64,000 nucleotides of DNA, from NCBI GenBank assembly GCA_034439615.1, contig JAWXAT010000047.1:133984-197983 (forward strand), written 5' to 3'. This document shows positions 1 through 43,351 of this stretch, piece by piece. The stretch is from Oligoflexia bacterium. GTDB taxonomy: Bacteria; Bdellovibrionota; Bdellovibrionia; JABDDW01. The notes beneath the pieces are model-generated. The model was not told where the DNA came from and did no database searches. It was given only the letters and a program-made list of their open reading frames with translations. The stretch's first letter is position 1. Every line of letters starts with the position of its first letter. A program made the position numbers and the translations under genes.

Positions 1-562
1 GATGAAAAATCGTTATCAGATCGTATTCTAAAAGATCGGCGACCAAAATATAATTCTTTTCTTTATAGGCATCAAAAATCTGCTCTAAAACCAATATCAT
101 CGCCTGCTCTAGTTCCAACCAATTGGCAGAGAGAGTTCCTTTGAGACCTTGATAGGCAGATTTATAATGCGTGATCATCTCTATAAACCACTGGGTTCCC
201 TCTACACAACCTCGATAGTAGGTATGAGCTTCATGAATAGCCTCAGACCTAAACAGTTGAGATGAATGCTCTAAAGCAATGAGAATGCGATTGATGTATT
301 CATTAGAACTTACAAGACTTTCGTCGAGCAAGATCAATGGGTCTTGTGTTTTTACACTTATAGTTTGAATTTCACTAAGTGCATTGCCTCCAAATTGTAT
401 TTCGGTTTCTTCATCAAGGACAATGCCATTTACTGATACTTCACAAACAACATGACCATCAGAATCTGCTTCGATATTAAACTGAGCAAGTACATCTTTC
501 AAAGATAGAGCCGCAGGATAAGACTCAATTAATTGTTCATGGTTCCAAATTTTTGTTTTCAT
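1..562 (-). CDS. hypothetical protein, N-terminal fragment (gene runs off the window start); last visible gene of the TPR/GT9 operon
   Basis: Absent from the ORF track because no stop lies in the window. My reverse translation from ATG 562-560 (AAGGA 8 nt upstream) gives MKTKIWNHEQLIESYPAALSLKDVLAQFNIEADSDGHVVCEVSVNG... and stays open to base 1. The start overlaps the end of the upstream GT9 gene by 26 nt. Confidence 0.5.
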   Translation of the reverse strand, partial: MKTKIWNHEQLIESYPAALSLKDVLAQFNIEADSDGHVVCEVSVNGIVLDEETEIQFGGNALSEIQTISVKTQDPLILLDESLVSSNEYINRILIALEHSSQLFRSEAIHEAHTYYRGCVEGTQWFIEMITHYKSAYQGLKGTLSANWLELEQAMILVLEQIFDAYKEKNYILVADLLEYDLITIFH

Positions 563-1997
563 TTTCGATTCCTTTCGATTGGTTATCGTTCTTAAAAGTC
601 ACACTTCTAAGACGCAACCTTTCGTAACACTGCTTGGTTTGATAAAATATTTCTTCTCGAGATCCGGGAGGTATGTTTTCTTTCTCACTAGAAAATGCAT
701 CTAGCAATGGAGCCAAAGGAGGAATTGTCTTTTTCATAAGTATCAACAACTCATCCATTCGATCCATGACACCAATAATTTCAACTTTTGCGGGAGCGGC
801 ATACAGGGCCGCCAACTGAGTGAGTGCCATTTTGCAAACTTCGTTAATTTGCATAAGCGCCTCTTGAAGATCAGCGCTCCACTTTGGTTGAGGTCCTCCA
901 AAATAAATATACTCCACCACCTCCCAATAATCTGGAGTTTGATTTTTTCCATGGATTTTATAGCGAACACCTTGAGATTCAATGCATTCAATAACACCAT
1001 CCAGGGGAGTTTGATGAGTCAAGATGCCCTCAATATTTTCAAAAACAAAATCTGACATTAAAAACTGAGGTTGCTTACTTACTAAAACTCTGCTGCCCGT
1101 AACAACGGGGCCCGTCTCCCAGAATCGAACGTTGCCCACACTTAAATTGACTGATTTTGTATTTGCCTGGCTGGCAATATGTAAAGGGCCACTATCAGCT
1201 CCGACAAATAACTCAGCACTTTGAATTGTGCGCGTCAGTTCAGAAAAATTTGTCATTCCAACTAAATTTATTAGATTATGAAGACCTGTTTGCAAGACGA
1301 CTTCATCAGCGAACTCTTTTTCAGATGCTGTTCCAACCAATGTGACTTGTTTATTTAAACCCTGAGTTAAACGACGAATAAGTGCAGACCAAGAATCGGC
1401 TGGCCATGTTTTTTGACTTTGACTCGCACCCAAATGACAAACAATGCCTTCACGTTTAAATGAATCAGTAGCACTCAATGACGAGTGCCAATCAGACTTG
1501 GTTAACTCTACACCAGCAATCCAAGCAAAAAGATCTGAAACGTGAATTCGATTGCTGCGGTCAACACCCACCTGTGAACGAAAATATTGACTTGCCGGAT
1601 CTTGGATTCGCAAGAAAAGATCTTGAGTTCGTGTATACCCACTCACCGGAATTTTTTCTTGTGCGATCAAATGAGTAATAAAACTACTCGAAGGTGAAAA
1701 AGATAAATTTATTATGCGATCGAACTTTTCTGAACGCAAATGGTTGATCGTCTCACTCAAATGTTCAATGCTCTCAGAAACACCACTCTTCTCAGTCATA
1801 AGTGGTCCTAAAAGTTTTACTGCATCTAACTTCCAAAGATGATCAACAAAACGTGCGTTTTCAGCGGCGATGGCAAAACGCTGCCGCACGAGCAAATGTA
1901 TTTGGGCTTGAGGATACTGTCTCTTTATTGCCGAAACTACTGGCAACGTGCAGAGAATATCACCGAGTCGCGTGAGTTGGATTATTAGAATTTTCAT
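537..1997 (-). CDS. glycosyltransferase family 9 (heptosyltransferase fold) with about 140-aa C-terminal helical extension
   Basis: ORF 537..2021. MKILIIQLTRLGDILCTLPVV...IHLLV and LFVGADSGPLHIAS are the GT9 hallmark N-terminal and nucleotide-sugar motifs. I moved the start to ATG 1997 (GAAGG upstream); position 2021 is a TTG. Confidence 0.8.
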   Translation of the reverse strand: MKILIIQLTRLGDILCTLPVVSAIKRQYPQAQIHLLVRQRFAIAAENARFVDHLWKLDAVKLLGPLMTEKSGVSESIEHLSETINHLRSEKFDRIINLSFSPSSSFITHLIAQEKIPVSGYTRTQDLFLRIQDPASQYFRSQVGVDRSNRIHVSDLFAWIAGVELTKSDWHSSLSATDSFKREGIVCHLGASQSQKTWPADSWSALIRRLTQGLNKQVTLVGTASEKEFADEVVLQTGLHNLINLVGMTNFSELTRTIQSAELFVGADSGPLHIASQANTKSVNLSVGNVRFWETGPVVTGSRVLVSKQPQFLMSDFVFENIEGILTHQTPLDGVIECIESQGVRYKIHGKNQTPDYWEVVEYIYFGGPQPKWSADLQEALMQINEVCKMALTQLAALYAAPAKVEIIGVMDRMDELLILMKKTIPPLAPLLDAFSSEKENIPPGSREEIFYQTKQCYERLRLRSVTFKNDNQSKGIENENKNLEP

Positions 1998-2157
1998 TGG
2001 TAGCGCCTTCAATTTGTTCAAGGATTAATTCGCGAAGAGTTAAAATATACTCAGCATGTTCTGAATAATCTTGAGTATCGCGAATTTGAGCAGAGAGTTT
2101 ATTTAACTCTTTGAGAGTACCTTGCAAATACATCTTGAGATCACTTTTTGGGGTCAT
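1960..2157 (-). CDS. small helical ORF (65 aa) coupled between the two GT9 genes (tentative)
   Basis: The ATG overlaps the GT9-2 stop in an ATGA arrangement (2154-2157). The translation LKELNKLSAQIRDTQDYSEHAEYILTLRELILEQIEG looks like a genuine amphipathic helix. The 3' end overlaps the GT9-1 start by 38 nt. Confidence 0.3.
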   Translation of the reverse strand: MTPKSDLKMYLQGTLKELNKLSAQIRDTQDYSEHAEYILTLRELILEQIEGATNENSNNPTHATR

Positions 2158-3821
2158 ATTATCTCCATGAAGCCTGTTTGAAGCCCGCGTATGAGTTTAA
2201 GTTCTATTTTTGTTCTTTGATGAGCATGCGATAATTTTTCTCTTAATTTTTTTACTACTTGAAATTGATTATTATCGGCACTTGAATCTTTTATGCTGAG
2301 CAAAAGTTGACGACTGTAACTCTTAAAATAATTTGACTGTTCTGCTTGAACACAAAATTCTTCAAGCTCTACGATGTACTGAGAAAAGCGAGAAGGTTCA
2401 TGCATAGCACCCAAAAGACTTTTGAGTTTATTGAGAAATTCACCCACTTGAGTTTCAAACCAAGTAACATTCTTCTCAAGTGACTTTAATTCGGTTACCC
2501 AGTCTTGTTTGGCCCGATCTGGAAATATATTTTCTAACAATTGTTTAAGCTCTAACCCTTCAGTACCGTATTCACCAACAGCTTTCTCGTGTGTTTTTTG
2601 GAGATAAAGTTTAAAGCTAGCGCGATCAATCCAACTATTGATTTCTTTTGCAGAGAAACTCTCTGCCAGCGGATAAGCCGCCCAATCACCGCGACTATTG
2701 ACATGAGTTTTAAGAAGTAAAACCTCATCTTTATACTCATGGGCCAAAGTTCTTAGCGCCATTTCATCTTGTCTCAGCATGCCACTTGCAACCATCGCCA
2801 CCATTTCAGCTGAAATTTTTTCGGCACACTCGTGTGTTGGCTGGGTGCAACCCCCTCTGTGGGAACACGGGGCGCAGGGTACGACTCCCTGAAGAATTAC
2901 AGCTCCCGGCGTGTAAGCCCCGGTTTTACGATATTCAGAACTTCCAACACTTATTTCTAAAATTTTTATTTTAGTGGCTGCGGCAATATGTTTAATGCTG
3001 GTATCTACAGTAATAAGCAAATGACCTTGCTTGATTAAACTATACGCCTGTTCAAGATTACAAATAACAGGAATCAAACGTGGATTATCTGCACAGATTG
3101 CAGCAACGGCTTCTTTTTCATTGGGCGCTCCAAGTATGAATACTTGAATTCCAGGCTCAAGATTTTGTAAAACCCGAATGAGTTTATTCCATTTTTTAGG
3201 AGCAAGTGTTTTTTTATTTTCATTACTGCACGCTTGAATCAGGATTCTTTTTTTATCAGCATATTTTGTGTATGTTTGTTCAGCAAAAGCAGCACCCGCT
3301 TTTGTCTCGAGAAGTTCAATGCGCCTATCAGCGCCACTGAGGCCCGCACCATAATGAAACACATCAACAAAATGAAAAACATTATCACTGCTTGGGTCAG
3401 TAAAATCATTTAGGTACTCAAACCAACCTGAACCCACAGAGAATTTTCCATTAACCCCAAATACAACACCACGCGTATTCGGGCATGCGATGAGTGCGGT
3501 CATCCATCCGCTAAGTCTATTGTGAGTGAGATTTACAACTTGATCATAACCCTCAGTTTGTAACTGCTCAACGAGATCTTCTATACGAAAATATGCTTCT
3601 AAAATATTTCTGTCTTGAGAACCAAGAATTTGCTGAATACCAGCACGATCAAAAGAATACACTTTGTTCACAAAGGGAATAATATTTGCGACAGATTGAA
3701 ATTGCCCATTAATCAAAACATGTAGTTCTGCACCTGGGTATTCCCGACGCAAACTTCTTAAAACTGATGTTGCCATCAGTATATCGCCGAGCCGCAAAAG
3801 ACTGATGACCAGAATCTTCAT
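2154..3821 (-). CDS. glycosyltransferase family 9 (heptosyltransferase fold) with about 200-aa C-terminal helical extension
   Basis: 555 aa. Motifs are MKILVISLLRLGDILMATSVLRSL...LHVLI, ITVDTSIKHIAAA and a WaaF-like Cys cluster PCAPCSHRGGCTQPTHEC. The stop makes a 4-nt overlap with the small downstream ORF and the start overlaps the upstream gene. Confidence 0.85.
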   Translation of the reverse strand: MKILVISLLRLGDILMATSVLRSLRREYPGAELHVLINGQFQSVANIIPFVNKVYSFDRAGIQQILGSQDRNILEAYFRIEDLVEQLQTEGYDQVVNLTHNRLSGWMTALIACPNTRGVVFGVNGKFSVGSGWFEYLNDFTDPSSDNVFHFVDVFHYGAGLSGADRRIELLETKAGAAFAEQTYTKYADKKRILIQACSNENKKTLAPKKWNKLIRVLQNLEPGIQVFILGAPNEKEAVAAICADNPRLIPVICNLEQAYSLIKQGHLLITVDTSIKHIAAATKIKILEISVGSSEYRKTGAYTPGAVILQGVVPCAPCSHRGGCTQPTHECAEKISAEMVAMVASGMLRQDEMALRTLAHEYKDEVLLLKTHVNSRGDWAAYPLAESFSAKEINSWIDRASFKLYLQKTHEKAVGEYGTEGLELKQLLENIFPDRAKQDWVTELKSLEKNVTWFETQVGEFLNKLKSLLGAMHEPSRFSQYIVELEEFCVQAEQSNYFKSYSRQLLLSIKDSSADNNQFQVVKKLREKLSHAHQRTKIELKLIRGLQTGFMEII

Positions 3822-4450
3822 AACACCAACTCTCTCATGGCCATCCAGATAAGACCTTCTTTTTCCATTTCGCTTTGTCGTCGCGACATGGCCTCTTCGA
3901 CCATTGGAAGAGTTAGAATTTGATCACTTGCGATATTTAGAGACTCTAAAAATCTCTGCAATGGAATATTACCCTGTGACAATTCTCGCAAATTTGTAAG
4001 TGTACGTTGGTTTAAGATTTGTGAAATAGCGGTGTAATAAAACGGCGCAACACGTACAGATGCTGGATGTCTTAAAATACAATAAGAACCGCTCAGCGCT
4101 TTTATAACTGAGGGCTCTCGACATATTTGTGCTGGGGGAACACCCGCCAATATTTCAGCACTTCCTAAAAATTCAGGCTGTTTTTCAATGATTGCATCGA
4201 CTAATTCGCGATTTGAATCTATAATCACTATATGAAATTTTTTGCGCTTTAAAAGTTCACGTATGTGGAATCCACCACCCACGCCTAATACGATTAAAGA
4301 TTTGAGTGAATTAATTTTTGACCATTCAGCATCGATAAAACTTATGGCTTCTTTTTCAGGATTCACAGATGAATGCAATAATGTTCCATTCACAACTGGG
4401 ATCCACCCCTGTTTGGAATTCAAAAATTCCAAGGGCGCCATTGAACTCAT
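3818..4450 (-). CDS. hypothetical protein; resembles the N-terminal module of Maf/MptE-like flagellin-glycosylation proteins (tentative)
   Basis: 210 aa. The pattern LHSSVNPEKEA...W...SLIVLGVGGGFHIRELL matches what I associate with Maf N-termini and Rossmann-like GxGxG motifs. It has 4-nt overlaps with both neighbours. Confidence 0.5.
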   Translation of the reverse strand: MSSMAPLEFLNSKQGWIPVVNGTLLHSSVNPEKEAISFIDAEWSKINSLKSLIVLGVGGGFHIRELLKRKKFHIVIIDSNRELVDAIIEKQPEFLGSAEILAGVPPAQICREPSVIKALSGSYCILRHPASVRVAPFYYTAISQILNQRTLTNLRELSQGNIPLQRFLESLNIASDQILTLPMVEEAMSRRQSEMEKEGLIWMAMRELVL

Positions 4451-5553
4451 AAGCTAGCTTCTTTCTTTTTCATTATTAGCTCTTTAAGTTCTTGTACGTC
4501 CGTGCGACCTGGATGCAGAACATCTAAACGAGTTAACTCTAATTCTGCTTCAATTAACGAACCTGTCTGAAAATAAAGGCCCGCAAGAGAGTAAATCATT
4601 TCACCATCATCTTGATTATTTTCTAAATACACATGAACTCTTTCGATAGCCACTGACCAATCACAATCGGTTTGTCCCCAACTTATCAACACCTGCAATG
4701 CAACTTGATTATGCGGGTTAATATCTAGACAGCGAAGTAGTACAGAAAGCGCCCATTCATCGTCTTTCATTTCACGAGCAACAAGCGCTACACCACACCA
4801 AGCTCGGTCATTAAATGGATTTAACTCTAAGCCTTTTTTGAAATATTCTAATGCCTGTGTATATTGGGCTCTTTGAAAATTTAAGGATCCAAGGTTTACA
4901 TTCAAAATATCTGAAAGAGGTCGAATGGTCAGAGCTTTATTATAGTTCTCCTCTGCACTTTCATAATCTGCAAGTCGCGTAAAAACATTTCCCAAATTTT
5001 TGTGCAGATCAAAAAGTCGTGGACTTTCAGCATCACACTGCCCAAGCGCATCAAGCCATGTCGATTGAGCATCGGCATCACGCTTCAGTAAATAGTATAT
5101 TTCACCAAGTTCAAAAAGATCTTGCTCAGTCACTCGCCTTTGAACAAGTTGCTCATAACATTTACGTGCATTATCCAATTGATTCTCTTGCTTGAAACAC
5201 CAGCCCATCCACCGAATAGCATCAACATGATTGTTATTGCGGCGTAAAATATCGCCCAACACATTGCGCGCCAAACTAAACTCACCACAATCAACCAGCA
5301 GAAGCGCATTTTGTAACAGATAACCATGCACTTCAAGATCTGTAGGTATAGGTGGTGGCTCAACTGGGGTAACTTGAGTTTTTACAACAAATTTAATTGA
5401 GGTGTCTTCGTCTGTTTCATCAAAATTTTGCAAAGCTTCGTCGATGTCACGGATGACCTTAAGCTGCGCGAATTTTTCAACGTCCGATCGCTCTTGTAAC
5501 ACAAATCGAAATGATTTTTCCTGGTCATCGGACTGGTCTAGAGTTTTATCCAT
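4447..5553 (-). CDS. TPR-repeat protein
   Basis: Repeated 34-aa TPR-like units (AIRWMGWCFKQENQLDNARKCYEQL, GNVFTRLADYESAEENYNKAL, ALEYFKKGLELNP...). The start is set at ATG 5553 with GGAGGTG upstream; the track ORF extends to 5598. Confidence 0.8.
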   Translation of the reverse strand: MDKTLDQSDDQEKSFRFVLQERSDVEKFAQLKVIRDIDEALQNFDETDEDTSIKFVVKTQVTPVEPPPIPTDLEVHGYLLQNALLLVDCGEFSLARNVLGDILRRNNNHVDAIRWMGWCFKQENQLDNARKCYEQLVQRRVTEQDLFELGEIYYLLKRDADAQSTWLDALGQCDAESPRLFDLHKNLGNVFTRLADYESAEENYNKALTIRPLSDILNVNLGSLNFQRAQYTQALEYFKKGLELNPFNDRAWCGVALVAREMKDDEWALSVLLRCLDINPHNQVALQVLISWGQTDCDWSVAIERVHVYLENNQDDGEMIYSLAGLYFQTGSLIEAELELTRLDVLHPGRTDVQELKELIMKKKEASL

Positions 5554-5702
5554 AACACCTCCATTACCTCTAGTGAGCAATGGAAGTGCCAGAGTCATAA
5601 AAATTTTAAATGGGCCTATAATTTAGCAGAGCTGATTTCTACAAGACTAAAGTTTGTTTCCAACATAAGAAAGCCGCCATGACACCAACTGGATGTCAAA
5701 AT

Positions 5703-5714
5703 ATTGACGTCAAT
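5703..5714. promoter_or_regulatory. perfect 12-bp palindrome ATTGACGTCAAT (TGACGTCA core) between the chaperone-like gene and the TPR operon
   Basis: Read directly from the sequence. The same GACGTCA core recurs in the direct repeats at 8202-8238. Confidence 0.35.
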
Positions 5715-6139
5715 TATGCTTTCTCATCTAGGGATTCACTATTTTTCTTCTCACTTTTATATGAGCTAAGTGTTTTTCTGCCTTGTCTTACATTTCTGAG
5801 CTCAATAATGATTTGAGATTTGGCAGTTTCAATAAACTGCATAATATCTAAATCCTGAGTTAAAATTGCTTTTACTAATAAATCTTTATGATCCAACAAT
5901 TCATTAAGACGATAGCGAGTTGTAGTATCTACATCTTGAGCATCTATTGTTTGGGACTGAGTATCCACAAGCACATCAATGTGTTTCACGATGTTTAGAA
6001 TATTTTCGCGATTTTCCCTAAAACTTTCAAGATCGCCAAAATCACCAACTGCCAACCGCCCTAGCCATTCACGGTTTAATCCTAAAAATTTTTCGAGATA
6101 TGTATTTTTCTCTTCTATTAATTTAATTGTTTTTGTCAT
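5714..6139 (-). CDS. putative flagellar export chaperone (FlgN/FliT-like)
   Basis: 141-aa all-helical protein with a 4-nt overlap with fliS, sitting in the position usually held by fliT or flgN-type chaperones. The call rests on position and composition only; I recognise no strong motif. Confidence 0.45.
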   Translation of the reverse strand: MTKTIKLIEEKNTYLEKFLGLNREWLGRLAVGDFGDLESFRENRENILNIVKHIDVLVDTQSQTIDAQDVDTTTRYRLNELLDHKDLLVKAILTQDLDIMQFIETAKSQIIIELRNVRQGRKTLSSYKSEKKNSESLDEKA

Positions 6140-6546
6140 CGATCGCTCCCTAGTGAATCAGTTTTTTGTTTTTTCAGACTATCAATGGCCTTAATCCAGC
6201 CTTCGTTGAGGGTATTAAGAAGTTTTAAAACTACATGCAGTTTATTAGCGTCACCCGTAATATTTGCTTGAGTCAGTTGATCGGTCATAAACATGTACAG
6301 CTGTTCTAAATTTTTTGCTATTTCACCACCCACTTCAAAATTCAAGGTGTTGTTTAATTCCATAATTATGTCATAGGCCTTACCGATATAGAGGCCACGA
6401 TCACCAATATTTTTTGCTTCACAAGCAATGACTGCTTTTTTTGTAAACTTAATTGCACCCTCGTACATCATGAGCAGCAATTTCTCACGACTCGCACTGG
6501 TGACTGAGGTTTGCTTATACTTTTGCAACGCTTTATTCTGACTCAT
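6136..6546 (-). CDS. fliS: flagellar export chaperone FliS
   Basis: 136 aa. REKLLLMMYEGAIKF...LYIGKAYDIIMELNNTL...GEIAKNLEQLYMFM is a typical FliS four-helix signature, and the gene lies downstream of fliD. Confidence 0.9.
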   Translation of the reverse strand: MSQNKALQKYKQTSVTSASREKLLLMMYEGAIKFTKKAVIACEAKNIGDRGLYIGKAYDIIMELNNTLNFEVGGEIAKNLEQLYMFMTDQLTQANITGDANKLHVVLKLLNTLNEGWIKAIDSLKKQKTDSLGSDR

Positions 6547-6583
6547 GCTCTTATTAACTCTCCCTTAATTCTGTTGTTACTCA

Positions 6584-7969
6584 TTAAGCTTCTTGTAAAT
6601 TAAATCCGCTTATTGCGGGGCCACCCATTTTAGCTTGCAAAAATGAACCTTGAGATTTCAATTTCGACATTGTCTCTTCGAGCCGCGCAAACTGTTGCTT
6701 GAGCTGCGCCTCTTTTTGCTGGAGCATTCGTTCTTTATTTGCAATCTGCTGATCAAACTGTGTGATCTTATCTTTGATACCCTTTGATCGTTGTAGAAGT
6801 GGCCCCGTACCTGTATCGATCATTTGCCCGATGACCATCTTCACCTGAGGAATAAGACCGTAACTAAGATTGTCTCCGACGAAAAATTCTTGAAGCCCCT
6901 CTAAATCTCTAGCTACTGCAGCGTTAAATTTTTCTTCATCAAATTGTAATTGTCCGTTACGCGCGAATGAAATTCCTGTTTCGGCTAAATACTTAATACC
7001 GCCCTTGGCAGCATAAACAGGATTTTGAAGTGTGTTTCTAAAACGATTTTCAATATTTCTTAATAGGCTATCGCCACCTAGCGTACGTGTTGTATCAGAG
7101 TCTTTATCAAGTGCGTTTTGTTGTTGAATAAATGCAAATACTCCGTTCATTCCATCAACAAACTTTTTTACCTTACCCAAAATAACTTCACGGTCTTCGC
7201 CAACATCGACAAAAATTTCTCTACCAGGTGCGGCTTGCCTTAATTGAAGTGAGATTCCTGGGATGACGTCTTTTAAATTATTATCAGTAATTTCAAATTC
7301 AAAACCATCAACTTTGACACGCCCATTTTCAGCAGGGCGCTCTTTCTCCATATAAAAATCTTGATCCCCATCAAGAAAATAAAATGTAGGAAACTCAACT
7401 CCACCACCCTCACCAATTCCTTTTCCAGTTAGGAGTAGTCGGTAAGGATAATCTTTATCAGTATTGTCTTGAATGACTGAAGCTTGAACGCCCAAACTCT
7501 TTGCATTGATAAGTTTGGCCAAGCCTTCAAGTGTGTTGTTATTCTTATCAACGTAAACTTCACGTGCACCACCTGAAGCATCTTTGATTTTTAAATATCC
7601 AACCCCAACTTGTGTTTCATTTTTATCAGGAAAACCATTACTCGCAGCTGCAGTCTTATGGGCAAGCTTCATAACTTCAACCATGTAATTGCCTTTTTGA
7701 GCCACACCTTTTTCTGCAGTAGCAGCAACTACATTTGGATCACCCGTTTCGATTTTAATATCAGAAAATCCACGTGTACTTCCAAGCTCACGTAGTCCAC
7801 TTGCAATCTCTCGCACTTTACTTGTGAGATCATCAACGAGCTTTAGCTTCTCTTGCTCTTTACCTTTGCGCGCTTCAAGAGCCTTGAGTGGCATACGCTC
7901 CGCCTCAACAAGTTGCTTAACTATGTTGGGAGGTAAACCTGTGTTGATTGATCCGAAGCTAATACCCAA
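6584..7969 (-). CDS. fliD: flagellar filament capping protein FliD
   Basis: 461 aa. It has the FliD N-terminus (MGISFGSINTGLPPNIVKQLVEAERMPLKALE) and the C-terminal coiled coil (QQFARLEETMSKLKSQGSFL). Confidence 0.9.
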   Translation of the reverse strand: MGISFGSINTGLPPNIVKQLVEAERMPLKALEARKGKEQEKLKLVDDLTSKVREIASGLRELGSTRGFSDIKIETGDPNVVAATAEKGVAQKGNYMVEVMKLAHKTAAASNGFPDKNETQVGVGYLKIKDASGGAREVYVDKNNNTLEGLAKLINAKSLGVQASVIQDNTDKDYPYRLLLTGKGIGEGGGVEFPTFYFLDGDQDFYMEKERPAENGRVKVDGFEFEITDNNLKDVIPGISLQLRQAAPGREIFVDVGEDREVILGKVKKFVDGMNGVFAFIQQQNALDKDSDTTRTLGGDSLLRNIENRFRNTLQNPVYAAKGGIKYLAETGISFARNGQLQFDEEKFNAAVARDLEGLQEFFVGDNLSYGLIPQVKMVIGQMIDTGTGPLLQRSKGIKDKITQFDQQIANKERMLQQKEAQLKQQFARLEETMSKLKSQGSFLQAKMGGPAISGFNLQEA

Positions 7970-8201
7970 ACAGTCCTCCTGACACGTGGGTGTTCATGAG
8001 ATTATTGTCTCTGAAAAAAGTGTTTTTCTAGAGCCAAAAATCTAACAGGACGTACTTCTCGAATTAAAAAATACTTAGAAAAGTATAAAAAGAGTAAATT
8101 CTTCCCCATTTTAGATTTACAATTCTAGATGTACTTTCAATTTGCTCGACACAGGTCTTGAGTTTCCATTCTTCAGTCGAGGAAATTTCAAAAAATTTCG
8201 A

Positions 8202-8238
8202 GACGTCAGTCTAGAAGTTATATGACGTCAGTCTAGAA
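8202..8238 (+). repeat. two exact 15-bp direct repeats GACGTCAGTCTAGAA (8202-8216, 8224-8238), 22-bp period, just upstream of the flagellin-1 promoter
   Basis: Read directly. Each copy contains the palindromes GACGTC and TCTAGA. Confidence 0.7.
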
Positions 8239-8252
8239 CTGCACGACTCGGC

Positions 8253-8279
8253 TTTAGTGATTTGCACACTCGCCGAATA
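8253..8279 (+). promoter_or_regulatory. sigma28 (FliA)-type promoter of flagellin 1: TTTAGTGA-N11-GCCGAATA
   Basis: The spacing matches the TAAAGTTT-N11-GCCGATAA consensus exactly, and the -10 is identical to that of flagellin 3. It implies a leader of about 270 nt. Confidence 0.55.
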
Positions 8280-8559
8280 GATTAGTGAAGTTAATGAGGG
8301 AAAGAAGTAAGAGACCTCATGAAGTAGTACAAAGGCAGTAAAGAAGTTCGAAGGCAGTATTCAAGAAGAAGTTGTCGAAGAGCAGTTGCAAGTAGTACGA
8401 AACAAAGTCTCAAAACCGAAGTACTCATGACTTCTAGGAAAGCAATGTTTTTGTTTAACAAGCTTGACTGGATGTCAGATTTCATTTGCTAGACCCGGGT
8501 GGGCTGGGTCAGCAATGAAAGTGTTATGGATGACGTTAGCCTTTTAGGGGGGTAATACC

Positions 8560-9393
8560 ATGGGCTTACGCATATCAACTAATATCGCCTCAATCAACGC
8601 GCAACGTACACTTGGCAACACACAGAGGGAAGTTCAAAATTCTTCTGCGCAGTTAGCTTCAGGTAACAGAATAAATAAATCAGGTGATGATGCTGCAGGT
8701 TTGGCAATCAGTGAAACACTGAAAGCTCAAGTTCGCGGTTTCCGTCAAGCGTCACGTAACGCCAGCGATGGTATTTCACTGGTACAAACATCAGAAGGTG
8801 GTCTCAATGAGATCAGTAACATCATTGTTCGTTTGCGCGAACTCGGTGTTCAAGCTTCTTCTGATACAGTGGGTGATCGTGAGCGCGGCATGATCGATGT
8901 CGAAGTTCAACAACTCAAAGCAGAATCACAACGTATTGCTTTAACAACTAAGTTTGGCACAAAAGCACTCTTAGATGGAACAGGTGAAACGCTTGATTTC
9001 CAAGTTGGTGTTAACAACAATGGTTTTCAAGATCGCATCTCTTTTAATGCAGGTGCTGCAAACGCAACTATTGATGCATTAGAGATCGCAGATATTGATT
9101 ATAAAACAAAAGAAGGCGCACAAGGCTCATTAGCTCAACTTGATGAAGCCTCAATTCGAGTAAACAAAACACGCGCCGATCTTGGAGCTCTACAAAATCG
9201 TTTACAATCAACGATTCAGAATTTAGGAATCCAAGATGAAAATCTCTCAGCAGCCAACAGCCGTATCCGTGACACTGACGTTGCAAATGCAACTGCAGAA
9301 ATGACACGTAATAATGTGCTCTTGAATGCAAACGTCTCAACATTAGCGCAAGCCAACCAAGTTGGTGGATTAGCACTAAAGCTCATCGGGTGA
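8560..9393 (+). CDS. fliC: flagellin (paralog 1)
   Basis: 277 aa. It has the conserved flagellin N-terminus (MGLRISTNIASINAQR...SGNRINKSGDDAAGLAISE) and C-terminus (LQNRLQSTIQNL...AEMTRNNVL...LAQANQV). AGGGGGG SD. Confidence 0.95.
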   Translation: MGLRISTNIASINAQRTLGNTQREVQNSSAQLASGNRINKSGDDAAGLAISETLKAQVRGFRQASRNASDGISLVQTSEGGLNEISNIIVRLRELGVQASSDTVGDRERGMIDVEVQQLKAESQRIALTTKFGTKALLDGTGETLDFQVGVNNNGFQDRISFNAGAANATIDALEIADIDYKTKEGAQGSLAQLDEASIRVNKTRADLGALQNRLQSTIQNLGIQDENLSAANSRIRDTDVANATAEMTRNNVLLNANVSTLAQANQVGGLALKLIG

Positions 9394-9468
9394 TAAAGCG
9401 AATTCACTGATCGAATCGCGGGGGTCTGGCGCCCTAATAAAAAACGCTAGACCTCTAGCCCACCTTCG

Positions 9469-9507
9469 GGTGGAGTTCAGGTAAAACCCGAGCTCCACCT
9501 GTTTTTT
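9469..9507 (+). terminator. Rho-independent terminator after flagellin 1
   Basis: A 13-bp stem pairs GGTGGAGTTCAGG with CCCGAGCTCCACC (one G-U pair, one mismatch), with loop TAAAA, followed by TGTTTTTT. Its 5' arm is shared with a small CCACC-TTCG-GGTGG hairpin at 9460-9473. Confidence 0.7.
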
Positions 9508-9700
9508 GAGCTAACCGATTTGAATGTGACTTGTAATGTCGCGCAGAATTTTTGAGTTTTAGGTGCTTTTTTTTGAGTTTAAAAATTTATGTGGATTTTA
9601 AGTTTTTATAAAAATCGACTCTAGTCCAGTTAACTAATTCTCTGGAGTATCCGAGTTAATTAACAGGAGATTCTCGCCAAATGATTGGCGGGTTCGAGCG

Positions 9701-10066
9701 ATGAATATAAAAGGAATTGTAGGAAATCTAATTCCCATCGATATTCTGAAGACTGATCGTCGAAAAACTCAGAATACATCCGATAGGGATCCGCAACAAG
9801 GCGGTGGTGGTGATGCTCAGCCAGAGCAACATCGATTTACCGATTCTGAATTGCAAGATGCCCTTAAACTTCTAAAAGATCTTCCAGGTATAAAAGAAAA
9901 TCATCTGCAGTTTAGAGTTGAGCGAAATGATAAACGAGTTGTCGTGTTTGTCGAAGATTCCACAGGAAAAGTAATTCGCCGTATTCCCGATACTGAGCTT
10001 TGGTATATGTTGAAAAACCGCCAGCATGACCAATCGCGCGGAAATTTATTGAATAAGGCGTTGTAA
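9701..10066 (+). CDS. flaG: flagellar protein FlaG
   Basis: 121 aa. LQFRVERNDKRVVVFVEDSTGKVIRRIPDTEL is the FlaG-family core. The gene lies downstream of a flagellin. Confidence 0.85.
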   Translation: MNIKGIVGNLIPIDILKTDRRKTQNTSDRDPQQGGGGDAQPEQHRFTDSELQDALKLLKDLPGIKENHLQFRVERNDKRVVVFVEDSTGKVIRRIPDTELWYMLKNRQHDQSRGNLLNKAL

Positions 10067-10144
10067 GTAATATAAATCTATCACCTATTTTTTTGGTTGC
10101 ACCGGCTATCTAGATTTCAGATTGCACCAATTAGAAATGCGTAA

Positions 10145-10184
10145 AAATAAAAAAAACCCTGGGACTGTGGGGGTCGCCAGGGTT
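10145..10184 (-). terminator. strong Rho-independent terminator for minus-strand transcripts
   Basis: The stem pairs AACCCTGG with CCAGGGTT and has an inner GAC/GTC pairing. On the minus strand it is followed by a run of at least 10 T (plus-strand A-run 10145-10156). It lies about 310 nt beyond the flagellin-2 stop. Confidence 0.7.
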
Positions 10185-10497
10185 CGGGCTCAAGAGCATA
10201 CTGTGGGCGTCTACTCTCAATAGTTTAAACCCTTATAGGGATTTGTCTCGAGACTTCATTGCTCAAACTCAGCTTTCCATGCATTCATAACTTTTATATC
10301 TTCGTATCACTCATTGTATTCGCAACTTTATTCTTCACACCACTCACCGCTTTACATCTTCGCAACATACTTCACATTCGCAAACTTTTTCCAAACCAGT
10401 GCCTTCGAGCTACATACATCTGTAATTAGCACCAGAGAAAACTTCGGTTCACGCGGGATCATTTTGATCCCGCGATTACCGTTTTAATTTCTGCAAA

Positions 10498-11325
10498 TCA
10501 ACCGATCAATTTTAGAGCTTGGGCAGGTACTTGGTTTGCTTGAGCAAGAACACTCACGGCACCAGCCTGAAGCACTTGAGATTGAGCAATCTCTGCGGTT
10601 TCTTTTGCAATGTCAGCATCACGCAAACGTGAGTTACCAGCAGCCAAATTTTCTGTTTGGATGTCGAGGTTACTTACAGTTGCTTGTAAACGATTCTGAA
10701 CTGCTCCGAAATCTGCGCGGAGTTTACCAACCTTAATGAGAGCATCGTCAACTTTTTGTAAAGTTTCACGAGCTTCATCTTTTTCACCAACACTTAGACC
10801 CCCGTAACCGAGTGTTTCAGCGCGAGCATCAGCATTCATATTATATTTAATTACGTTATCTGGACCAGCAAACGCACCTACTTGATATTCCAACTCTTCA
10901 CCTGAACCATCAAGTAATTGCTTTGTACCAAAACGTGTTGTTTTTGCGATACGATCGCCTTCTTGAATTAATTGTTGAGCTTCTGTATTTAAGAAACCTC
11001 TTTCAACATCGCTGATGTTGTCTGAAGCAGCTTGAACGCCCAACTCTCTCAATCGAATCAAAATATTTGATACTTCATTGAGACCGCCTTCACTTACTTG
11101 AATCAGTGAAACTGCGTTGTACGCGTTGTTGCGTGCTTGTTTCATACCGCCGAGTTGTCCTCGGATATTTTCTGAGATCGCTAAACCTGCAGCATCATCA
11201 GCAGCGCGAACAATTCGGCTACCTGAAGATAATGCGGCTAACGCATGTTCGTTACGTGCTGCTTGAACGCCCAACTGTCGTTGTGCATTTAAAGACGCCA
11301 CGTTTGTATTAATTCTTAAGCCCAT
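10498..11325 (-). CDS. fliC: flagellin (paralog 2)
   Basis: The conserved flagellin termini are present. I moved the start to ATG 11325 (MGLRINTNVASLNAQR) with AGGAGG upstream; the track ORF is extended to 11370. Confidence 0.95.
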   Translation of the reverse strand: MGLRINTNVASLNAQRQLGVQAARNEHALAALSSGSRIVRAADDAAGLAISENIRGQLGGMKQARNNAYNAVSLIQVSEGGLNEVSNILIRLRELGVQAASDNISDVERGFLNTEAQQLIQEGDRIAKTTRFGTKQLLDGSGEELEYQVGAFAGPDNVIKYNMNADARAETLGYGGLSVGEKDEARETLQKVDDALIKVGKLRADFGAVQNRLQATVSNLDIQTENLAAGNSRLRDADIAKETAEIAQSQVLQAGAVSVLAQANQVPAQALKLIG

Positions 11326-11514
11326 AAAGCCTCCTACCCATTTTGAGAATAATTCTCTCTTGGGTTCCACATAGCTCGACCTTCATCCAGGTACAAAGTT
11401 GGCGAGCTAATAAATTCCAACTCCTAACCAATGAAAGTTTTTGGAAGCTTTAGAGTCTCTTAGACCGGGACAGGCTCTTGAGAGATTCTAGATCTGCCTC
11501 AACTTTCAATATTC

Positions 11515-11541
11515 TTCTCGGCCTTGGTCCTGGAAACTTGA
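11515..11541 (-). promoter_or_regulatory. sigma28-type promoter of flagellin 2: TCAAGTTT-N11-GCCGAGAA
   Basis: Read on the minus strand. The -35 matches 7 of 8 positions, the spacer is exactly 11 nt, and the -10 matches 6 of 8. Confidence 0.65.
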
Positions 11542-11619
11542 GGGTGCGTTAGGACTTCCGTCTTGTGCGCAGCGCGTCTAGTGTTGGAGACAACTAGACT
11601 TTAACCTAGAAAATTTTAT

Positions 11620-13305
11620 TTACATTTTTATTGTTTGCAGTGTTTTACTCGTCGCGTCAATAGCTGACGAGAGTGCCGTCTCAAAACAGGGGTTCGCCCA
11701 ATTGTCTTGATGAGCAAAGAAAATTCGATTCTCGATAGCTTGATGTGCAAGCTCAAGAAATCCATCTGCGAGTAATCCTTTTTCGGCTAATGGAAGTGCG
11801 TGTCCCCATCGTGTGATACGTAAATCTTCAACATCACTTTGTGAAAGTGAGAGTGCAGAAAGTAAATCTGGCAGTGAACTTTCAAATAGTGCTTTCGTAT
11901 TTGAAAAAGAATCGATGGAGTAAAGTTCTCCCCGCGCACCATCATAGGGACACCCATGATAAAGTGTCAGTACAGATCGTTGCGAGTTATCAGCTGCTGC
12001 CCAACTTGCAAAAATAACATCTGTAAATGCGCGAGACTTTGAATCAACGGCTGGGTCAGTAATAGTTGCAGGAGTTAATCTAAAAAGATCATAAGACGGA
12101 GACTTAAACTTTTTATTAAGTAATACATTCGCAACAAGATAGGCCCGGTACTTTATTTTCTGCATAGCTTCAAGCTGTGTTGCTGGCAAATTTTCTATTA
12201 CACGTTTTGCAACAAATTTAGGCGCAGCAAACACACATGCTTTTGCAGAAATAGTTTTTGTCTCACCGTTTTGCGTATAAGTTACTTCGACTCCTGAAGA
12301 TGTAGTTCGCACATCAAGCACCAGTGAGTTTGCGCGCAATGAATTTTCAGGCAAAGTATTTTTTAATCTTTCATACATTGCTTGTGCGATTGCGGCATTG
12401 CCACCAGGAAATACAGTAATACCCACAAGGTCACTGGCTAAAAAGCCAATCATTTGAGCGGCAGATATTTCATCTACTCCACCGGCAAATGCAGACCACG
12501 CATATTCATTAAAAAACTCAGCGATATGTGGATGAAGATTTTGAAACTTACTCTGCGACCATTGAGCAAAACTTAAGCGATCAAGTTTATCGTATTCAGT
12601 TTTTGAAATGGTTGAGTCTTTGTTCCAAGGAATATCCGGGTAAGTCTTCTCACCAAATTCAATAAGCGTTTTATGAACAGATTTAAACTCTGCAGCCCTC
12701 GCAGGATCAGTTGCGCCACTCCAAAATGGGGAAATTATTTTTTTCGCATTTCCCATAAGTACATGTGCATTACCAGAATCATCATTTCTAAAATCAAGTA
12801 GATTTAAATCTTTGAGTAGTAAAGCGGCCGGAGAATCAACACTAGGTCGGGTGATATACGCAGCACCGATTGAATAAGAGATGTCTTCCCATTTTTCACC
12901 TTTTGAATTACCGCCAAACTGAGAAGCTTGTTCTAATAAAATAGGTTTTTGATCACGTAAATAATAAGCCGACGCTAAACCACTTATTCCACCACCGACA
13001 ATAATAACAGATGTATTCTCAGACGAGGATGGTCGCCCATTTATCTTTTTTAAAAACCCAGTTTTATCCCAGAGAATCGGATGCGCGCGGTGTGGATCAT
13101 CACCTGTGTAATCTTTTAAAGTTGATGTTTCAAATATTTTTGAAATTGGTGACGGATCACCATTTACACTGCCCGTCGCACCGAGACCCGCTAGTGCACT
13201 ATAATATTTTGATTTGAAAAACCATGCACCACCAAGGCCTGCGCCTACGGCTCCAACTAAACCCGCTTTGAGTACACTTCTTCGTGAAATCCATTTTTCT
13301 GACAT
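11620..13305 (-). CDS. Tat-exported FAD-dependent amine-oxidase-like oxidoreductase
   Basis: 561 aa. It has a twin-arginine signal (MSEKWISRRSVLKAGLVGAVGAGLGG), the dinucleotide-binding motif VIIVGGGISGLASAYYL and LEQASQFGGN, typical of flavin amine oxidase/NAD(P)-binding Rossmann enzymes. Confidence 0.8.
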   Translation of the reverse strand: MSEKWISRRSVLKAGLVGAVGAGLGGAWFFKSKYYSALAGLGATGSVNGDPSPISKIFETSTLKDYTGDDPHRAHPILWDKTGFLKKINGRPSSSENTSVIIVGGGISGLASAYYLRDQKPILLEQASQFGGNSKGEKWEDISYSIGAAYITRPSVDSPAALLLKDLNLLDFRNDDSGNAHVLMGNAKKIISPFWSGATDPARAAEFKSVHKTLIEFGEKTYPDIPWNKDSTISKTEYDKLDRLSFAQWSQSKFQNLHPHIAEFFNEYAWSAFAGGVDEISAAQMIGFLASDLVGITVFPGGNAAIAQAMYERLKNTLPENSLRANSLVLDVRTTSSGVEVTYTQNGETKTISAKACVFAAPKFVAKRVIENLPATQLEAMQKIKYRAYLVANVLLNKKFKSPSYDLFRLTPATITDPAVDSKSRAFTDVIFASWAAADNSQRSVLTLYHGCPYDGARGELYSIDSFSNTKALFESSLPDLLSALSLSQSDVEDLRITRWGHALPLAEKGLLADGFLELAHQAIENRIFFAHQDNWANPCFETALSSAIDATSKTLQTIKM

Positions 13306-13310
13306 GAAGT

Positions 13311-13339
13311 CTTATAGGCATAACTTTTTATTGTGACAA
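13311..13339 (-). promoter_or_regulatory. sigma70-like promoter TTGTCA-N17-TATAAG ending 5 nt before the oxidase ATG (leaderless or near-leaderless mRNA)
   Basis: Read on the minus strand. There is no SD between the -10 and ATG 13305. Confidence 0.5.
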
Positions 13340-13349
13340 GAATAAGTAG

Positions 13350-13388
13350 AAAAAAATGAGCCGGAGAGAACGGGCGCTCTCTCCGGCC
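13350..13388 (-). terminator. Rho-independent terminator after flagellin 3
   Basis: A perfect 10-bp stem pairs GCCGGAGAGA with TCTCTCCGGC, with an 8-nt loop, followed on the minus strand by CATTTTTTT. A second 8-bp hairpin lies at 13404-13433. Confidence 0.75.
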
Positions 13389-13450
13389 CTGGGCTTTAAA
13401 TAGGTAGTGCCTGCGGCAGCGACAGCACTACCCTGCGGAGTTCAAATTAA

Positions 13451-14284
13451 TTACAGAACATTCAAGAGCTTGCTTGCGCGAAGCGGAACTTGATTGGCCT
13501 GTGAAAGCACTCCAATTCCAGCATCGGCTAGGATTTGAGATTGGAGCAACTCTCCGGTTTCATAGGCGATGTCTGCGTCAGACAGTCGTGACTTTGAAGC
13601 CGAAAGATTTTCATACTGCGTATCTAAGTTGGAAGTCGTTGCTTGCAGTCTTGATTGAATGGCACCGAAATTAGCTCGTATTGATGAAATATTGACGAGC
13701 GCTTTATCGAGTTTATCTAAATTCTCAGCGGCATCGTCGCGATCTCTAATGGCAAGACCAGAAATATCAAGTTTGCCCGCTGTAGAATCTGCATCTAAAT
13801 TATATTCGATGCGGTTATCTGGTCCAGCAAATGCGCCCACATGAAATGTAAATTGACCACCATTGCCGTCGAGCAATGATTTGTTTCCAAATCTTGTCGT
13901 ACGCGCAATTCGATCAAACTCTTGAGACAGCTGCTGATATTCGTTATCCAAAAAGCCGCGTTCAACATCACTGACGTTATCGCTGGCTGCTTGAATCGAA
14001 AGTTCTCGCAGTCTTATGATTATATTATTTTGTTCATTCAAACCGCCTTCAGCTACCTGAATCAGCGAGACCGCATTATTAGAATTTGATCTTGCTTGTC
14101 TGATAGAAGCGATTTGCCCCCGTAGATTTTCTGAAATAGCCAAGCCTGCAGCATCATCACCAGCTTTTACGATGCGACTTCCGCCAGCAATTGCAGCGAG
14201 TGCATGCTCTTGCCTTGCTTGTGCTTTACCTAAATTCCGATTGGCTTGAATAGCAGCCACGTTTGTATTAATCCGCAAACCCAT
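13451..14284 (-). CDS. fliC: flagellin (paralog 3)
   Basis: 277 aa. It has MGLRINTNVAAIQANR...AGDDAAGLAISE...LQATTSNL...LSQANQV. Confidence 0.95.
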   Translation of the reverse strand: MGLRINTNVAAIQANRNLGKAQARQEHALAAIAGGSRIVKAGDDAAGLAISENLRGQIASIRQARSNSNNAVSLIQVAEGGLNEQNNIIIRLRELSIQAASDNVSDVERGFLDNEYQQLSQEFDRIARTTRFGNKSLLDGNGGQFTFHVGAFAGPDNRIEYNLDADSTAGKLDISGLAIRDRDDAAENLDKLDKALVNISSIRANFGAIQSRLQATTSNLDTQYENLSASKSRLSDADIAYETGELLQSQILADAGIGVLSQANQVPLRASKLLNVL

Positions 14285-14345
14285 AAAATCCCCCGCCTAA
14301 TTACTTATTGAGAGCCTGTCCCGGCCTCAAGTTTCTCTAAATAAC

Positions 14346-14372
14346 TATTCGGCACAACGCGTTAGGACTTTA
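14346..14372 (-). promoter_or_regulatory. sigma28-type promoter of flagellin 3: TAAAGTCC-N11-GCCGAATA
   Basis: Read on the minus strand with an exact 11-nt spacer, about 55 nt upstream of the ATG. Confidence 0.65.
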
Positions 14373-14664
14373 GTGCTGAAGTTGCGACTAATGGAATTCA
14401 TTTGTAGATACAGGTACTTAAATGGCAAATTTTTTAACGCGTAAAGTTAATAGGCGGTTTTATGAGGATATAAGGTCACTTCGGTATCAACCACATCGAA
14501 AATGATCTTGAGAGGATTCCCTCCATGCAGGGCTTTCCGTTCGCCCCTCGTGTGCGAACGTGCCATGAAAGCGATGGTGTTTTATTTTTTTCAAGTTTCT
14601 CAATTTCCATAAACGTATGCCAAATCAAGTTGACAAATTTACCGTTGATTATTAGAACTTCATT

Positions 14665-15507: not shown

Positions 15508-15626
15508 GAAAGCGGCCATGGGAATCTTTTTACAATTCAATTCTTACGGTACGATACATTTTTTGGCAAGCAAAGTAGCGTGCATCAGCAGATCTCTGAA
15601 TGGTGCATGTAGCGTAATAGTAGGCG

Positions 15627-16103: not shown

Positions 16104-16241
16104 CTTCAGTGGTTCATATGAGGCATTGAGGACTAAGGCATGTGTGAGTTGATTCTTGAAAGTTACTCCCCCTTGTTCCTATCTTCTATTTTTTCGAGCT
16201 ATGACCGGAGAGTCAAGTCAAGGTTCACTCTTATATAAAAC

Positions 16242-32431: not shown

Positions 32432-32519
32432 GAAATTTCAATCCTGAGAAAATTTTGATACCATATTTTTATGGCCCAATGAATGAGCCATAGTTCTCTA
32501 AACCATGGAAGGAAAAGAG

Positions 32520-43278: not shown

Positions 43279-43351
43279 GGGATTGATCTATGGAATTAAC
43301 ATGCCAAACAACTACGGCACGCACATTGCTTTGTAAATGACTGGAGTTGCC

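Follow-up and report, generated by a model that had tools for sequence, protein, structure and literature searches.

Layout of a flagellum-linked cassette with two GT9 genes

The window, by which we mean the whole 64-kb stretch of DNA analyzed (positions 133,984 to 197,983 of contig JAWXAT010000047.1, from an Oligoflexia bacterium of the Bdellovibrionota), begins with a cassette of six minus-strand open reading frames (ORFs) that run from nucleotide (nt) 5553 to 1, behind fliD, fliS, and a chaperone-like gene. Two of the six encode family 9 glycosyltransferases with C-terminal tails (GT9-A and GT9-B); an earlier note, made from this DNA sequence alone, proposed that the cassette is a GT9-based system for flagellin glycosylation. 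The cassette genes and their flagellar neighbors are as follows (aa, amino acids).

4447-5553, minus strand, TPR-repeat protein, 368 aa from ATG 5553
3818-4450, minus strand, stand-alone Maf N-terminal-domain-like (Maf-N-like) protein, 210 aa
2154-3821, minus strand, GT9-A, 555 aa
1960-2157, minus strand, small helical protein between the two GT9 genes, 65 aa
537-1997, minus strand, GT9-B, 486 aa from ATG 1997
1-562, minus strand, DUF8042/TP0873_N family protein, 187 codons in the window of ~205 to 215
5714-6139, minus strand, 141-aa FliT/FlgN-like protein (weak Pfam FliT match, E = 0.024)
6136-6546, minus strand, fliS (Pfam FliS)
6584-7969, minus strand, fliD (Pfam FliD_N/FliD_C)
8560-9393, 10498-11370, and 13451-14284, three flagellin genes (confirmed by Pfam/NCBIfam)
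9701-10066, flaG (confirmed by Pfam/NCBIfam)

The order of these genes and all overlap positions given by the earlier note were exact, and the three flagellin genes and flaG that it placed near the cassette are confirmed by profiles at 8.5 to 14.3 kb. ATGA start/stop overlaps, read from the sequence, lie at 4447-4450, 3818-3821, and 2154-2157, and longer overlaps at 1960-1997 and 537-562; a further ATGA overlap joins fliS to the 141-aa gene (6136-6139). The start codons of the earlier note are better than those of the ORF list: ATG 5553 is preceded by the ribosome-binding site GGAGGTG, whereas the longer ORF extends to 5598, and ATG 1997 gives the canonical GT9 N terminus MKILII, where the listed start is TTG 2021.

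Coupling of the cassette genes goes beyond chance, and the overlaps are kept across orthologous loci, where the median junction spacings are −4, −4, −4, −38, and −26 nt (56 to 69 loci). Such conservation suggests stoichiometric co-production of the cassette proteins. What had been described as one tightly coupled unit is in fact cut by the window edge: the six genes are part of an eight-gene unit that continues, in orthologous loci, to a histidine kinase (60 of 60 loci) and a translationally coupled CheY-like regulator (59 of 60). On the other side, a 160-nt gap with a putative σ54 promoter separates the cassette from the fliD-fliS-141-aa genes, which argues that the cassette is a transcription unit distinct from the fliD operon.

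Conservation and genomic neighborhood

Scanning 185,579 species genomes yielded 80 loci, nearly all of them titled Bdellovibrionales or its families and including cultured Bdellovibrio bacteriovorus strains. GT9-B lies downstream of GT9-A in 68/68 loci, and the fliD-fliS-141-aa genes lie upstream of GT9-A in all 59 Bdellovibrionales loci that have enough upstream DNA. Around GT9-A homologues of 28 to 34% identity, the order is fliD, fliS, a gene for ~145 aa, TPR, a gene for ~210 aa, GT9, a small ORF, GT9, DUF8042, kinase, and regulator. Halobacteriovorax and Bacteriovorax carry the cassette intact beside fliD-fliS, without the TPR gene, and low-GC metagenome loci are alike. A metagenome scan with the GT9 of a distant variant locus (L089) found nothing by itself, while a mixed alignment found 55 loci; of the metagenome loci that extend far enough upstream, all but one (L104) have fliD/fliS next to the cassette. 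L089 aside, the cassette was found almost only in Bdellovibrionota. In B. bacteriovorus, fliD is Bd0611 and fliS is Bd0612, and the six flagellin genes are scattered. Literature searches on genes downstream of Bd0612, TP0873, DUF8042, a Bdellovibrio heptosyltransferase, and Bdellovibrio lipopolysaccharide (LPS) heptose found nothing relevant.

As the earlier note had observed, no LPS-core genes adjoin the cassette in the window; nor did we find LPS-core, 3-deoxy-D-manno-octulosonate (Kdo), or lipid A genes adjoining it in >130 related loci, and a canonical LPS-core GT9 cluster (L088) looks quite different. The survey of orthologous neighborhoods, named in that note as a possible refutation, does not refute its proposal, with the cassette nearly always beside fliD/fliS and never beside LPS genes. 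By its glycosyltransferase genes within a flagellin/fliD/fliS locus, the cassette fits a generic flagellin glycosylation island.

The variant L089 (GC, 0.53; FliD, 24% identical) is part of a complete flagellar cluster, in which the genes run flagellin, flaG, fliD, fliS, an FlgN-like gene (weak, 24 bits), DUF8042, a protein combining Maf-N with DUF3880 and Glyco_trans_1_2, and a tailed, Cys-finger GT9 of 567 aa; beside these are Maf-N+GT2 and GT2+TPR proteins and flgB-fliJ genes. To judge from these domains, L089 looks like a typical flagellin glycosylation island with the same type of GT9. We also note that its four glycosyltransferases (L089 positions 10001-16345) have Maf-N and TPR modules shuffled among different catalytic folds; the flagellin transferase of the FgtA type in Burkholderia also has the GT2+TPR architecture.

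A putative σ54 promoter for the cassette

Promoter elements were found ahead of the cassette and of two flagellin genes.

5576-5591, minus strand, σ54 (RpoN) −24/−12 element TGGCACTTCCATTGCT, 22 nt before the TPR start codon
11515-11541 and 14346-14372, minus strand, σ28-like boxes upstream of two flagellin genes, two mismatches to TAAAG-N14-GCCGATAA

We looked for GG at −24 and GC at −12 within TGGCAC-N5-TTGCW, 5′ of the first gene. The element at 5576-5591 matches TGGCAY-N5-TTGCW at 11/11 positions, is the sole exact match in the window, and sits within the extension of the TPR ORF (5553 to 5598). In 69 of 72 Bdellovibrionales loci, the equivalent gap holds a σ54 element scoring at least 10/11, and the 86 elements of this kind in 1.36 Mb of locus DNA consist mostly of those 69. 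This conserved putative promoter, newly recognized here, belongs to the cassette itself; no σ54 element was found before fliD. Bacteriovoracia cassettes have another conserved upstream sequence instead. Scanning positions 1-8400 for σ70 promoters and terminators gave nothing better than shuffled sequences. With a σ54 element on the cassette versus σ28-like boxes on two flagellin genes, cassette expression may come before that of the flagellins, by analogy with other σ54/σ28 flagellar hierarchies, so that the machine could precede its presumed substrates.

Elsewhere in the window, the gene for a PAS histidine kinase precedes that for a regulator with receiver, σ54-activator, and HTH_8 domains (30491-33914, plus strand), a candidate activator for the promoter at 5576-5591. 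A similar kinase/σ54-activator pair lies beside the L089 flagellar cluster, and loci L084 and L085 have a receiver-less σ54 activator near fliD. Near-consensus σ54 elements (10/11) also occur at 34606-34621 and 43315-43330 (both plus strand), just upstream of uncharacterized ORFs 34742-35425 and 43337-43990.

The two GT9 enzymes

Both large cassette proteins are, as the earlier note held, tailed members of the GT9 family; the tails span ~150 to 220 aa. Their scores against Glyco_transf_9 (PF01075) are 73.2 bits for GT9-A and 83.3 bits for GT9-B (cutoff, 22), and no further GT9 genes were found in the window. GT9-A consists of a GT9 core (residues 1-337) and a 218-aa tail (338-555); GT9-B has a core of residues ~1-329, homologous to that of GT9-A (hhalign E = 3e-50), and a tail of ~157 aa. 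An AlphaFold2 (AF2) model of GT9-A (predicted local distance difference test [pLDDT], 88.8; predicted TM score [pTM], 0.88) has as best Foldseek matches 1psw (WaaF), 3tov (a Veillonella GT9), 6dfe, and 2h1h (E = 5e-14 to 1e-11), with WaaC among the top. In the model, residues 338-555 make up a module of two helices, five long helices, and a small beta unit, whose structural matches are generic helical bundles only.

Both enzymes look catalytically competent. In GT9-A, where residues were read from an alignment of 22 homologues and then checked on 72 orthologues, D13, K204, E235, D273, T274, and H278 are invariant (72/72), and K203 and K277 occur in 71/72. The GT9-B counterparts are D13 and S269 (69/69 each), D268 (68/69), K196 and E226 (65/69 each), and H273 (only 47/69). 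HMMER alignments to Escherichia coli WaaC and WaaF match the conserved GT9-A residues with WaaC D13, K192, the Glu of GAPxE, and the DTGxxH donor motif; we assume for these the residue roles and numbering of the WaaC literature (D13, K192, E222, D261, and H266). Both GT9 families keep their catalytic and donor residues in lineages as distant as 22 to 30% identity.

By their scores, GT9-A and GT9-B are not LPS heptosyltransferase equivalogs. Against the models for LPS heptosyltransferases I, II, and III (TIGR02193, TIGR02195, and TIGR02201), their scores span 52 to 92 bits; the best are 66.7 bits for GT9-A and 92.5 bits for GT9-B (the latter to TIGR02193; cutoff, ~185), and all fall below the cutoffs of 134.6 to 185.3. 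The calculated isoelectric points (pI) of their N-domains differ, that of GT9-B being basic (9.2) and that of GT9-A acidic (5.5).

GT9-A has a predicted metal finger, C316-x2-C319-x-H321-x3-C325-x4-H330-x-C332, ~40 residues past the donor motif; C316, C319, C325, and C332 are present in 69/72 orthologues, and GT9-B is without the finger. Together with the σ54 promoter, the extension of the operon, and the nearby hldC gene described below, this finger is newly found here.

The Maf-N-like protein

Profile searches confirmed the TPR and Glyco_transf_9 domains named in the earlier note, and left the 210-aa protein borderline for Maf_flag10_N (PF20157), at 22.8 bits, just under the cutoff of 23.5. 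Its description as Maf-N-like is nonetheless borne out by its family: all 14 close homologues match PF20157 at E ≤ 0.01, and the family profile reaches a true Maf protein and Maf-N-fused transferases. Searched against 1.84 billion cluster representatives, that profile found 1,462 relatives, the best 150 of which are mostly stand-alone proteins of ~210 to 230 aa; also among the 1,462 are a true Maf of 792 aa (Maf_flag10_N + MptE-like) and a 454-aa Maf-N-like + GT2 fusion. The family hidden Markov model also matches the Maf-N region of the 604-aa L089 protein (6e-32), which itself passes the Pfam cutoff (29.1 bits). These fusions to Maf, GT2, and GT1-like domains suggest that the Maf-N-type module is a portable glycosyltransferase partner in flagellar loci. 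None of the six cassette proteins matches the MptE-like/MAF_flag10 catalytic domain (DUF115, PF01973) at E ≤ 0.1.

An AF2 model of the 210-aa protein (pLDDT, 84) has an N-terminal beta hairpin, a four-stranded Rossmann-like half with a GxGGGxH motif, and a helical C terminus. Its top Foldseek matches are spermidine/spermine synthases (E ~ 4e-4), and its profile weakly matches a dimethyladenosine transferase among solved structures (E = 0.0085); no Maf structure appears in either list. Four strands are too few for a complete methyltransferase, a candidate that we rejected, and we therefore treat the protein as a non-catalytic Rossmann-like module.

Small helical, DUF8042, and TPR proteins and the linked kinase

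The TPR protein scores 81 bits with TPR_1 and 75 bits with TPR_2 (Pfam), has an acidic N-terminal stretch of ~95 aa, and, by reading of its sequence, has no signal peptide. The position of the 65-aa protein holds an ORF of 37 to 104 aa in 57 of 76 loci, with a common LxxLxELIxEQ pattern and flanking overlaps of −4 and −38 nt; no Pfam family was found for it. We observed a weak likeness of this protein to the C-terminal helix of the 210-aa protein (3818-3910; hhalign, 14.6%, not significant), and each directly precedes a GT9 gene; the 65-aa protein may, on this nonsignificant match, be a remnant of a duplicated pair of Maf-N-like and GT9 genes. DUF8042 orthologues carry PF26154, some also PF27299, and overlap GT9-B by a median of 26 nt. 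The cassette-linked histidine kinase appears soluble, with a long N-terminal region that includes a Cys-rich stretch (CHRIF...SICPGCP in locus L003, 13835-16059).

A candidate supplier of the donor sugar

One further gene in the window bears on the donor.

22166-22639, minus strand, hldC, stand-alone heptose-1-phosphate adenylyltransferase (ADP-heptose synthesis; TIGR02199, 203.3 bits; cutoff, 181.5)

A distance of 16.6 kb separates it from the cassette, its neighbors are unrelated housekeeping genes (RsmE-like and PrmA methyltransferases, glmS, and glmU), and its presence implies that the organism makes ADP-heptose. HldC is thus a candidate supplier of donor sugar for the cassette, and says nothing on the acceptor. 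No genes for biosynthesis of nonulosonic (pseudaminic) acid were found in the window.

Comparison with known glycosylation systems

In gene content, the cassette resembles the Maf systems of Campylobacter, Helicobacter, Aeromonas, Shewanella, Magnetospirillum, and Clostridium, including the tripartite Maf-2/GlfM system. Both lie in flagellar filament loci and are cytoplasmic (we saw no signal peptides in the cassette), both have a Maf_flag10_N-type module, which in the cassette is a separate 210-aa protein, and to the TPR or small helical accessory proteins that recognize the acceptor in Maf systems the cassette offers likely counterparts. The TPR domain of Maf-1 and the four-helix bundle of GlfM direct flagellin glycosyltransferases, and GlfM resembles FliS/FliT (10.1101/2023.12.03.569772). 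Unlike Maf systems, the cassette is without an MptE-like/MAF_flag10 domain, so that catalysis would fall to two GT9 (GT-B) enzymes, and its likely donor would be an ADP-heptose-like sugar rather than CMP-nonulosonate.

FlmG, the pseudaminyltransferase of Caulobacter crescentus, likewise joins a TPR module to a GT-B transferase and is encoded close to flagellar genes. Its TPR domains direct its specificity, and expression of its components precedes that of the flagellin secretion chaperone (PMC7591256), an early expression paralleled in the cassette by the putative σ54 promoter versus the σ28-like flagellin boxes. Flagellins are short in both organisms (~275 aa) and lack outer domains. In the cassette, however, the TPR protein is a separate polypeptide that is missing in Bacteriovoracia, the GT-B enzyme is a duplicated GT9 with helical tails, and pseudaminic acid genes are not seen in the window.

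The autotransporter heptosyltransferases of the BAHT family (TibC and AAH), which form dodecameric rings, perform ADP-heptose-dependent O-heptosylation of proteins in the cytoplasm. TibC has a WaaC-like GT-B fold and a Cys4 iron finger (PMC4358343), which follows the donor motif; the predicted C-x2-C-x5-C-x6-C finger of GT9-A is at the equivalent place in the same lobe. The spacing differs in TibC (C339/C342/C358/C370), GT9-B has no finger, the GT9-A core begins at residue 1 without an N-terminal beta-barrel, and the context is flagellar rather than autotransporter. The finger is a parallel, not a sign of membership. We considered GT9-A as a member of the TibC/BAHT family and rejected this, as neither phmmer nor profile searches at E ≤ 10 recovered TibC, which is also not among the 50 best Foldseek hits listed.

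The best structural matches of the GT9-A model are to WaaC/WaaF/WaaQ, with which the cassette enzymes share the fold, Asp13, Lys, and the D-T/S-G-x-x-H motif. They differ by C-terminal extensions of 150 to 220 aa, scores below the equivalog cutoffs, the metal finger of GT9-A, and linkage to fliD/fliS instead of waaA, kds, or lpx genes.

GT9 genes in flagellar loci have been described before. GT9-1 to GT9-5 occur in variable region 1 of Enterobacterales flag-2 loci (70 strains), with a role in flagellin glycosylation predicted from genomics alone (De Maayer et al. 2020, PMC6993521). The statement in the earlier note that a GT9-driven flagellin modification pathway had not been described was therefore somewhat overstated. 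The likeness to the flag-2 GT9s is drawn at the level of description; these belong to unrelated lineages and to variable, strain-specific islands, whereas the cassette is fixed, phylum-wide, translationally coupled, and accompanied by Maf-N, DUF8042, and a kinase/regulator pair.

A proposed GT9 machine for flagellar filament proteins and its alternatives

We put at roughly 50% the probability that the cassette encodes a cytoplasmic, multi-subunit GT9 glycosyltransferase machine dedicated to flagellar filament proteins. The GT9 enzymes, the Maf-N-like protein, the fliD/fliS neighborhood, and hldC all speak for the earlier proposal of GT9-based flagellin glycosylation; its assignment of an adaptor role to the TPR protein is weakened, and its claim of novelty tempered. 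Under our reading, the σ54 promoter would drive the genes for the TPR protein, Maf-N-like protein, GT9-A, 65-aa protein, GT9-B, DUF8042 protein, kinase, and CheY-like regulator. GT9-A and GT9-B would be active inverting GT-B transferases, their donor most likely ADP-heptose or a related nucleotide sugar; from them flagellins, or some other exported filament protein, would receive a small glycan on Ser/Thr ahead of passage through the flagellar secretion system. Capture of the substrate would fall not to the GT9 cores but to non-catalytic modules: the Maf-N-like and 65-aa proteins, the helical tails, and the TPR protein, the last in Bdellovibrionia alone; we propose such modules by parallel with the TPR of FlmG and Maf-1 and with GlfM.

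A more specific form of this reading, which we hold to be less likely than not, is that the GT9s, Maf-N-like, 65-aa, and DUF8042 proteins form a heteromeric O-heptosyltransferase that decorates flagellins in the cytoplasm with sugar from ADP-heptose, and that the kinase and regulator report its activity or occupancy and so couple glycosylation to filament assembly, under σ54 and throughout the phylum. If so, no flagellin glycosyltransferase of the GT9 type and no heptose-based flagellin glycan would have been known before it, and protein O-heptosylation would extend beyond autotransporter adhesins. More generally, with flagellin as the acceptor, GT9 would become a fourth catalytic class beside Maf, FlmG, and GT2-type enzymes, and Maf-N a portable adaptor for catalytic domains of unrelated kinds. 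The cassette is conserved in predatory Bdellovibrionota, for which motility matters in predation, and is present in the genetically tractable B. bacteriovorus.

Several observations weigh against a machine for filament proteins. B. bacteriovorus flagellins of 274 to 282 aa run at 29 to 31 kDa on SDS-PAGE (PMC2791853). The closeness of this mobility to prediction makes heavy glycosylation unlikely and leaves room for a small glycan of a few sugars. The exposed central segment of the three flagellins in the window has no Ser/Thr enrichment and no conserved Ser/Thr, which is mildly negative at most. Characterized GT9 enzymes act mostly on LPS, and to our knowledge no flagellin glycan has been reported for any member of the Bdellovibrionota. 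The tail of GT9-A, a proposed capture module, is lost in L087 (8001-9116, GT9-A of 371 aa), where the cassette is otherwise intact, and in L104 (GT9-A of 364 aa); the latter locus (1-12673) has no fliD/fliS upstream and has a methyl-accepting chemotaxis protein and hydrolases instead. The TPR gene, present in all Bdellovibrionales loci, has no counterpart in the orthologous Bacteriovoracia cassettes, so that the TPR protein is accessory and cannot be the essential flagellin-binding adaptor. Comparison by hhalign of the GT9 tails, the 65-aa and 141-aa proteins, FliS, and DUF8042 (50- to 70-sequence alignments, FliT and GlfM profiles not being among those compared) gave no significant homology, the best non-core pairs (by probability) being the 65-aa protein with the 210-aa protein's C terminus, at 14.6%, and the 141-aa protein with the TPR protein, at 10.3%. 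A simple modification pathway also leaves the conserved kinase and regulator unexplained. Finally, the flagella of these bacteria have LPS-containing sheaths, according to a review of sheathed flagella (PMC7175336).

That sheath is the basis of the leading alternative, in which GT9-A and GT9-B are paralogues of LPS-core heptosyltransferases that are co-expressed with flagellar genes, are held at the flagellar pole by their tails and partner proteins, and build a distinct core glycoform for the sheath. We consider this unlikely, although WaaF, WaaC, and 3tov are nearest in structure and family, hldC is in the window, and the near-predicted size of the flagellins fits an acceptor elsewhere. The cassette is almost confined to a phylum whose cultured genera, as far as that review names them, are all sheathed, and B. 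bacteriovorus sheath LPS is unlike bulk LPS; the difference given there lies, however, in fatty acids (Thomashow and Rittenberg 1985, cited in PMC7175336), not in core sugars. The pI of 9.2 of the GT9-B N-domain would be expected of a lobe that faces the membrane or lipid A, but the corresponding GT9-A domain is acidic. Also against it are the lack of LPS-core, Kdo, and lipid A neighbors in >130 loci, the different makeup of a true LPS-core GT9 cluster, and scores under all NCBIfam heptosyltransferase cutoffs. The Maf-N partners, and the GT2+TPR and Maf-N-fused neighbors in L089, point to protein acceptors, and we know of no means by which an enzyme on the cytoplasmic face could mark LPS destined for the sheath. 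Were sheath LPS the acceptor after all, the cassette would give the first genetic handle on the distinct composition of the flagellar sheath, a long-standing question.

Somewhat less probable again is that the acceptor is another flagellar or secreted protein (the FliD cap, FlaG, a hook-filament junction protein, or a sheath-associated protein) and that the cassette serves the cap or filament initiation. Its invariant neighbors are fliD, fliS, and the FliT/FlgN-like gene, and no more than 44 of 82 loci have a flagellin gene in their 10-kb flank; yet distance from flagellin genes is weak evidence, given how B. bacteriovorus scatters its own. The family of the DUF8042 partner is named after Treponema TP0873, whose gene we take to adjoin fliD in T. 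pallidum, and the surface segment of the flagellins lacks conserved Ser/Thr. Known cytoplasmic flagellar glycosylation, on the other hand, targets flagellins first (PMC7591256; 10.1101/2023.12.03.569772).

It is improbable that the GT9s serve mainly as nucleotide-sugar sensors or as a scaffold, tuning flagellar expression or the motor together with the kinase and regulator and transferring little or no sugar: the near-universal, translationally coupled kinase and regulator, a σ54 promoter typical of flagellar checkpoints, the resemblance of helical-bundle adaptors to two-component connector proteins (10.1101/2023.12.03.569772), and the lack of any reported flagellin mass shift would suit such a role, but the strict retention of the catalytic Asp, Lys, and Glu and of the donor motif in both GT9s argues for retained catalysis, and two paralogous enzymes would be needless for sensing alone.

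Other features of the window

Between two of the flagellin genes lies a gene for a 561-aa flavin amine-oxidase/PigB-like oxidoreductase (11620-13305, minus strand). Directly after the third flagellin gene are an IS200/Y1-transposase-like ORF (14665-15507, plus strand) and an HNH endonuclease gene (15627-16103, minus strand); HNH-like genes flank the flagellin region in the related loci L003 and L087 too. A 547-aa protein with a 3D domain and a polysaccharide deacetylase domain (18858-20501, minus strand) may modify the cell wall in the predatory lifestyle. The lipid A of B. bacteriovorus carries mannose in place of phosphate, and for this reason the PMT_2/ArnT-like GT-C glycosyltransferase encoded at 54716-56110 (minus strand) could be a lipid A glycosyltransferase.

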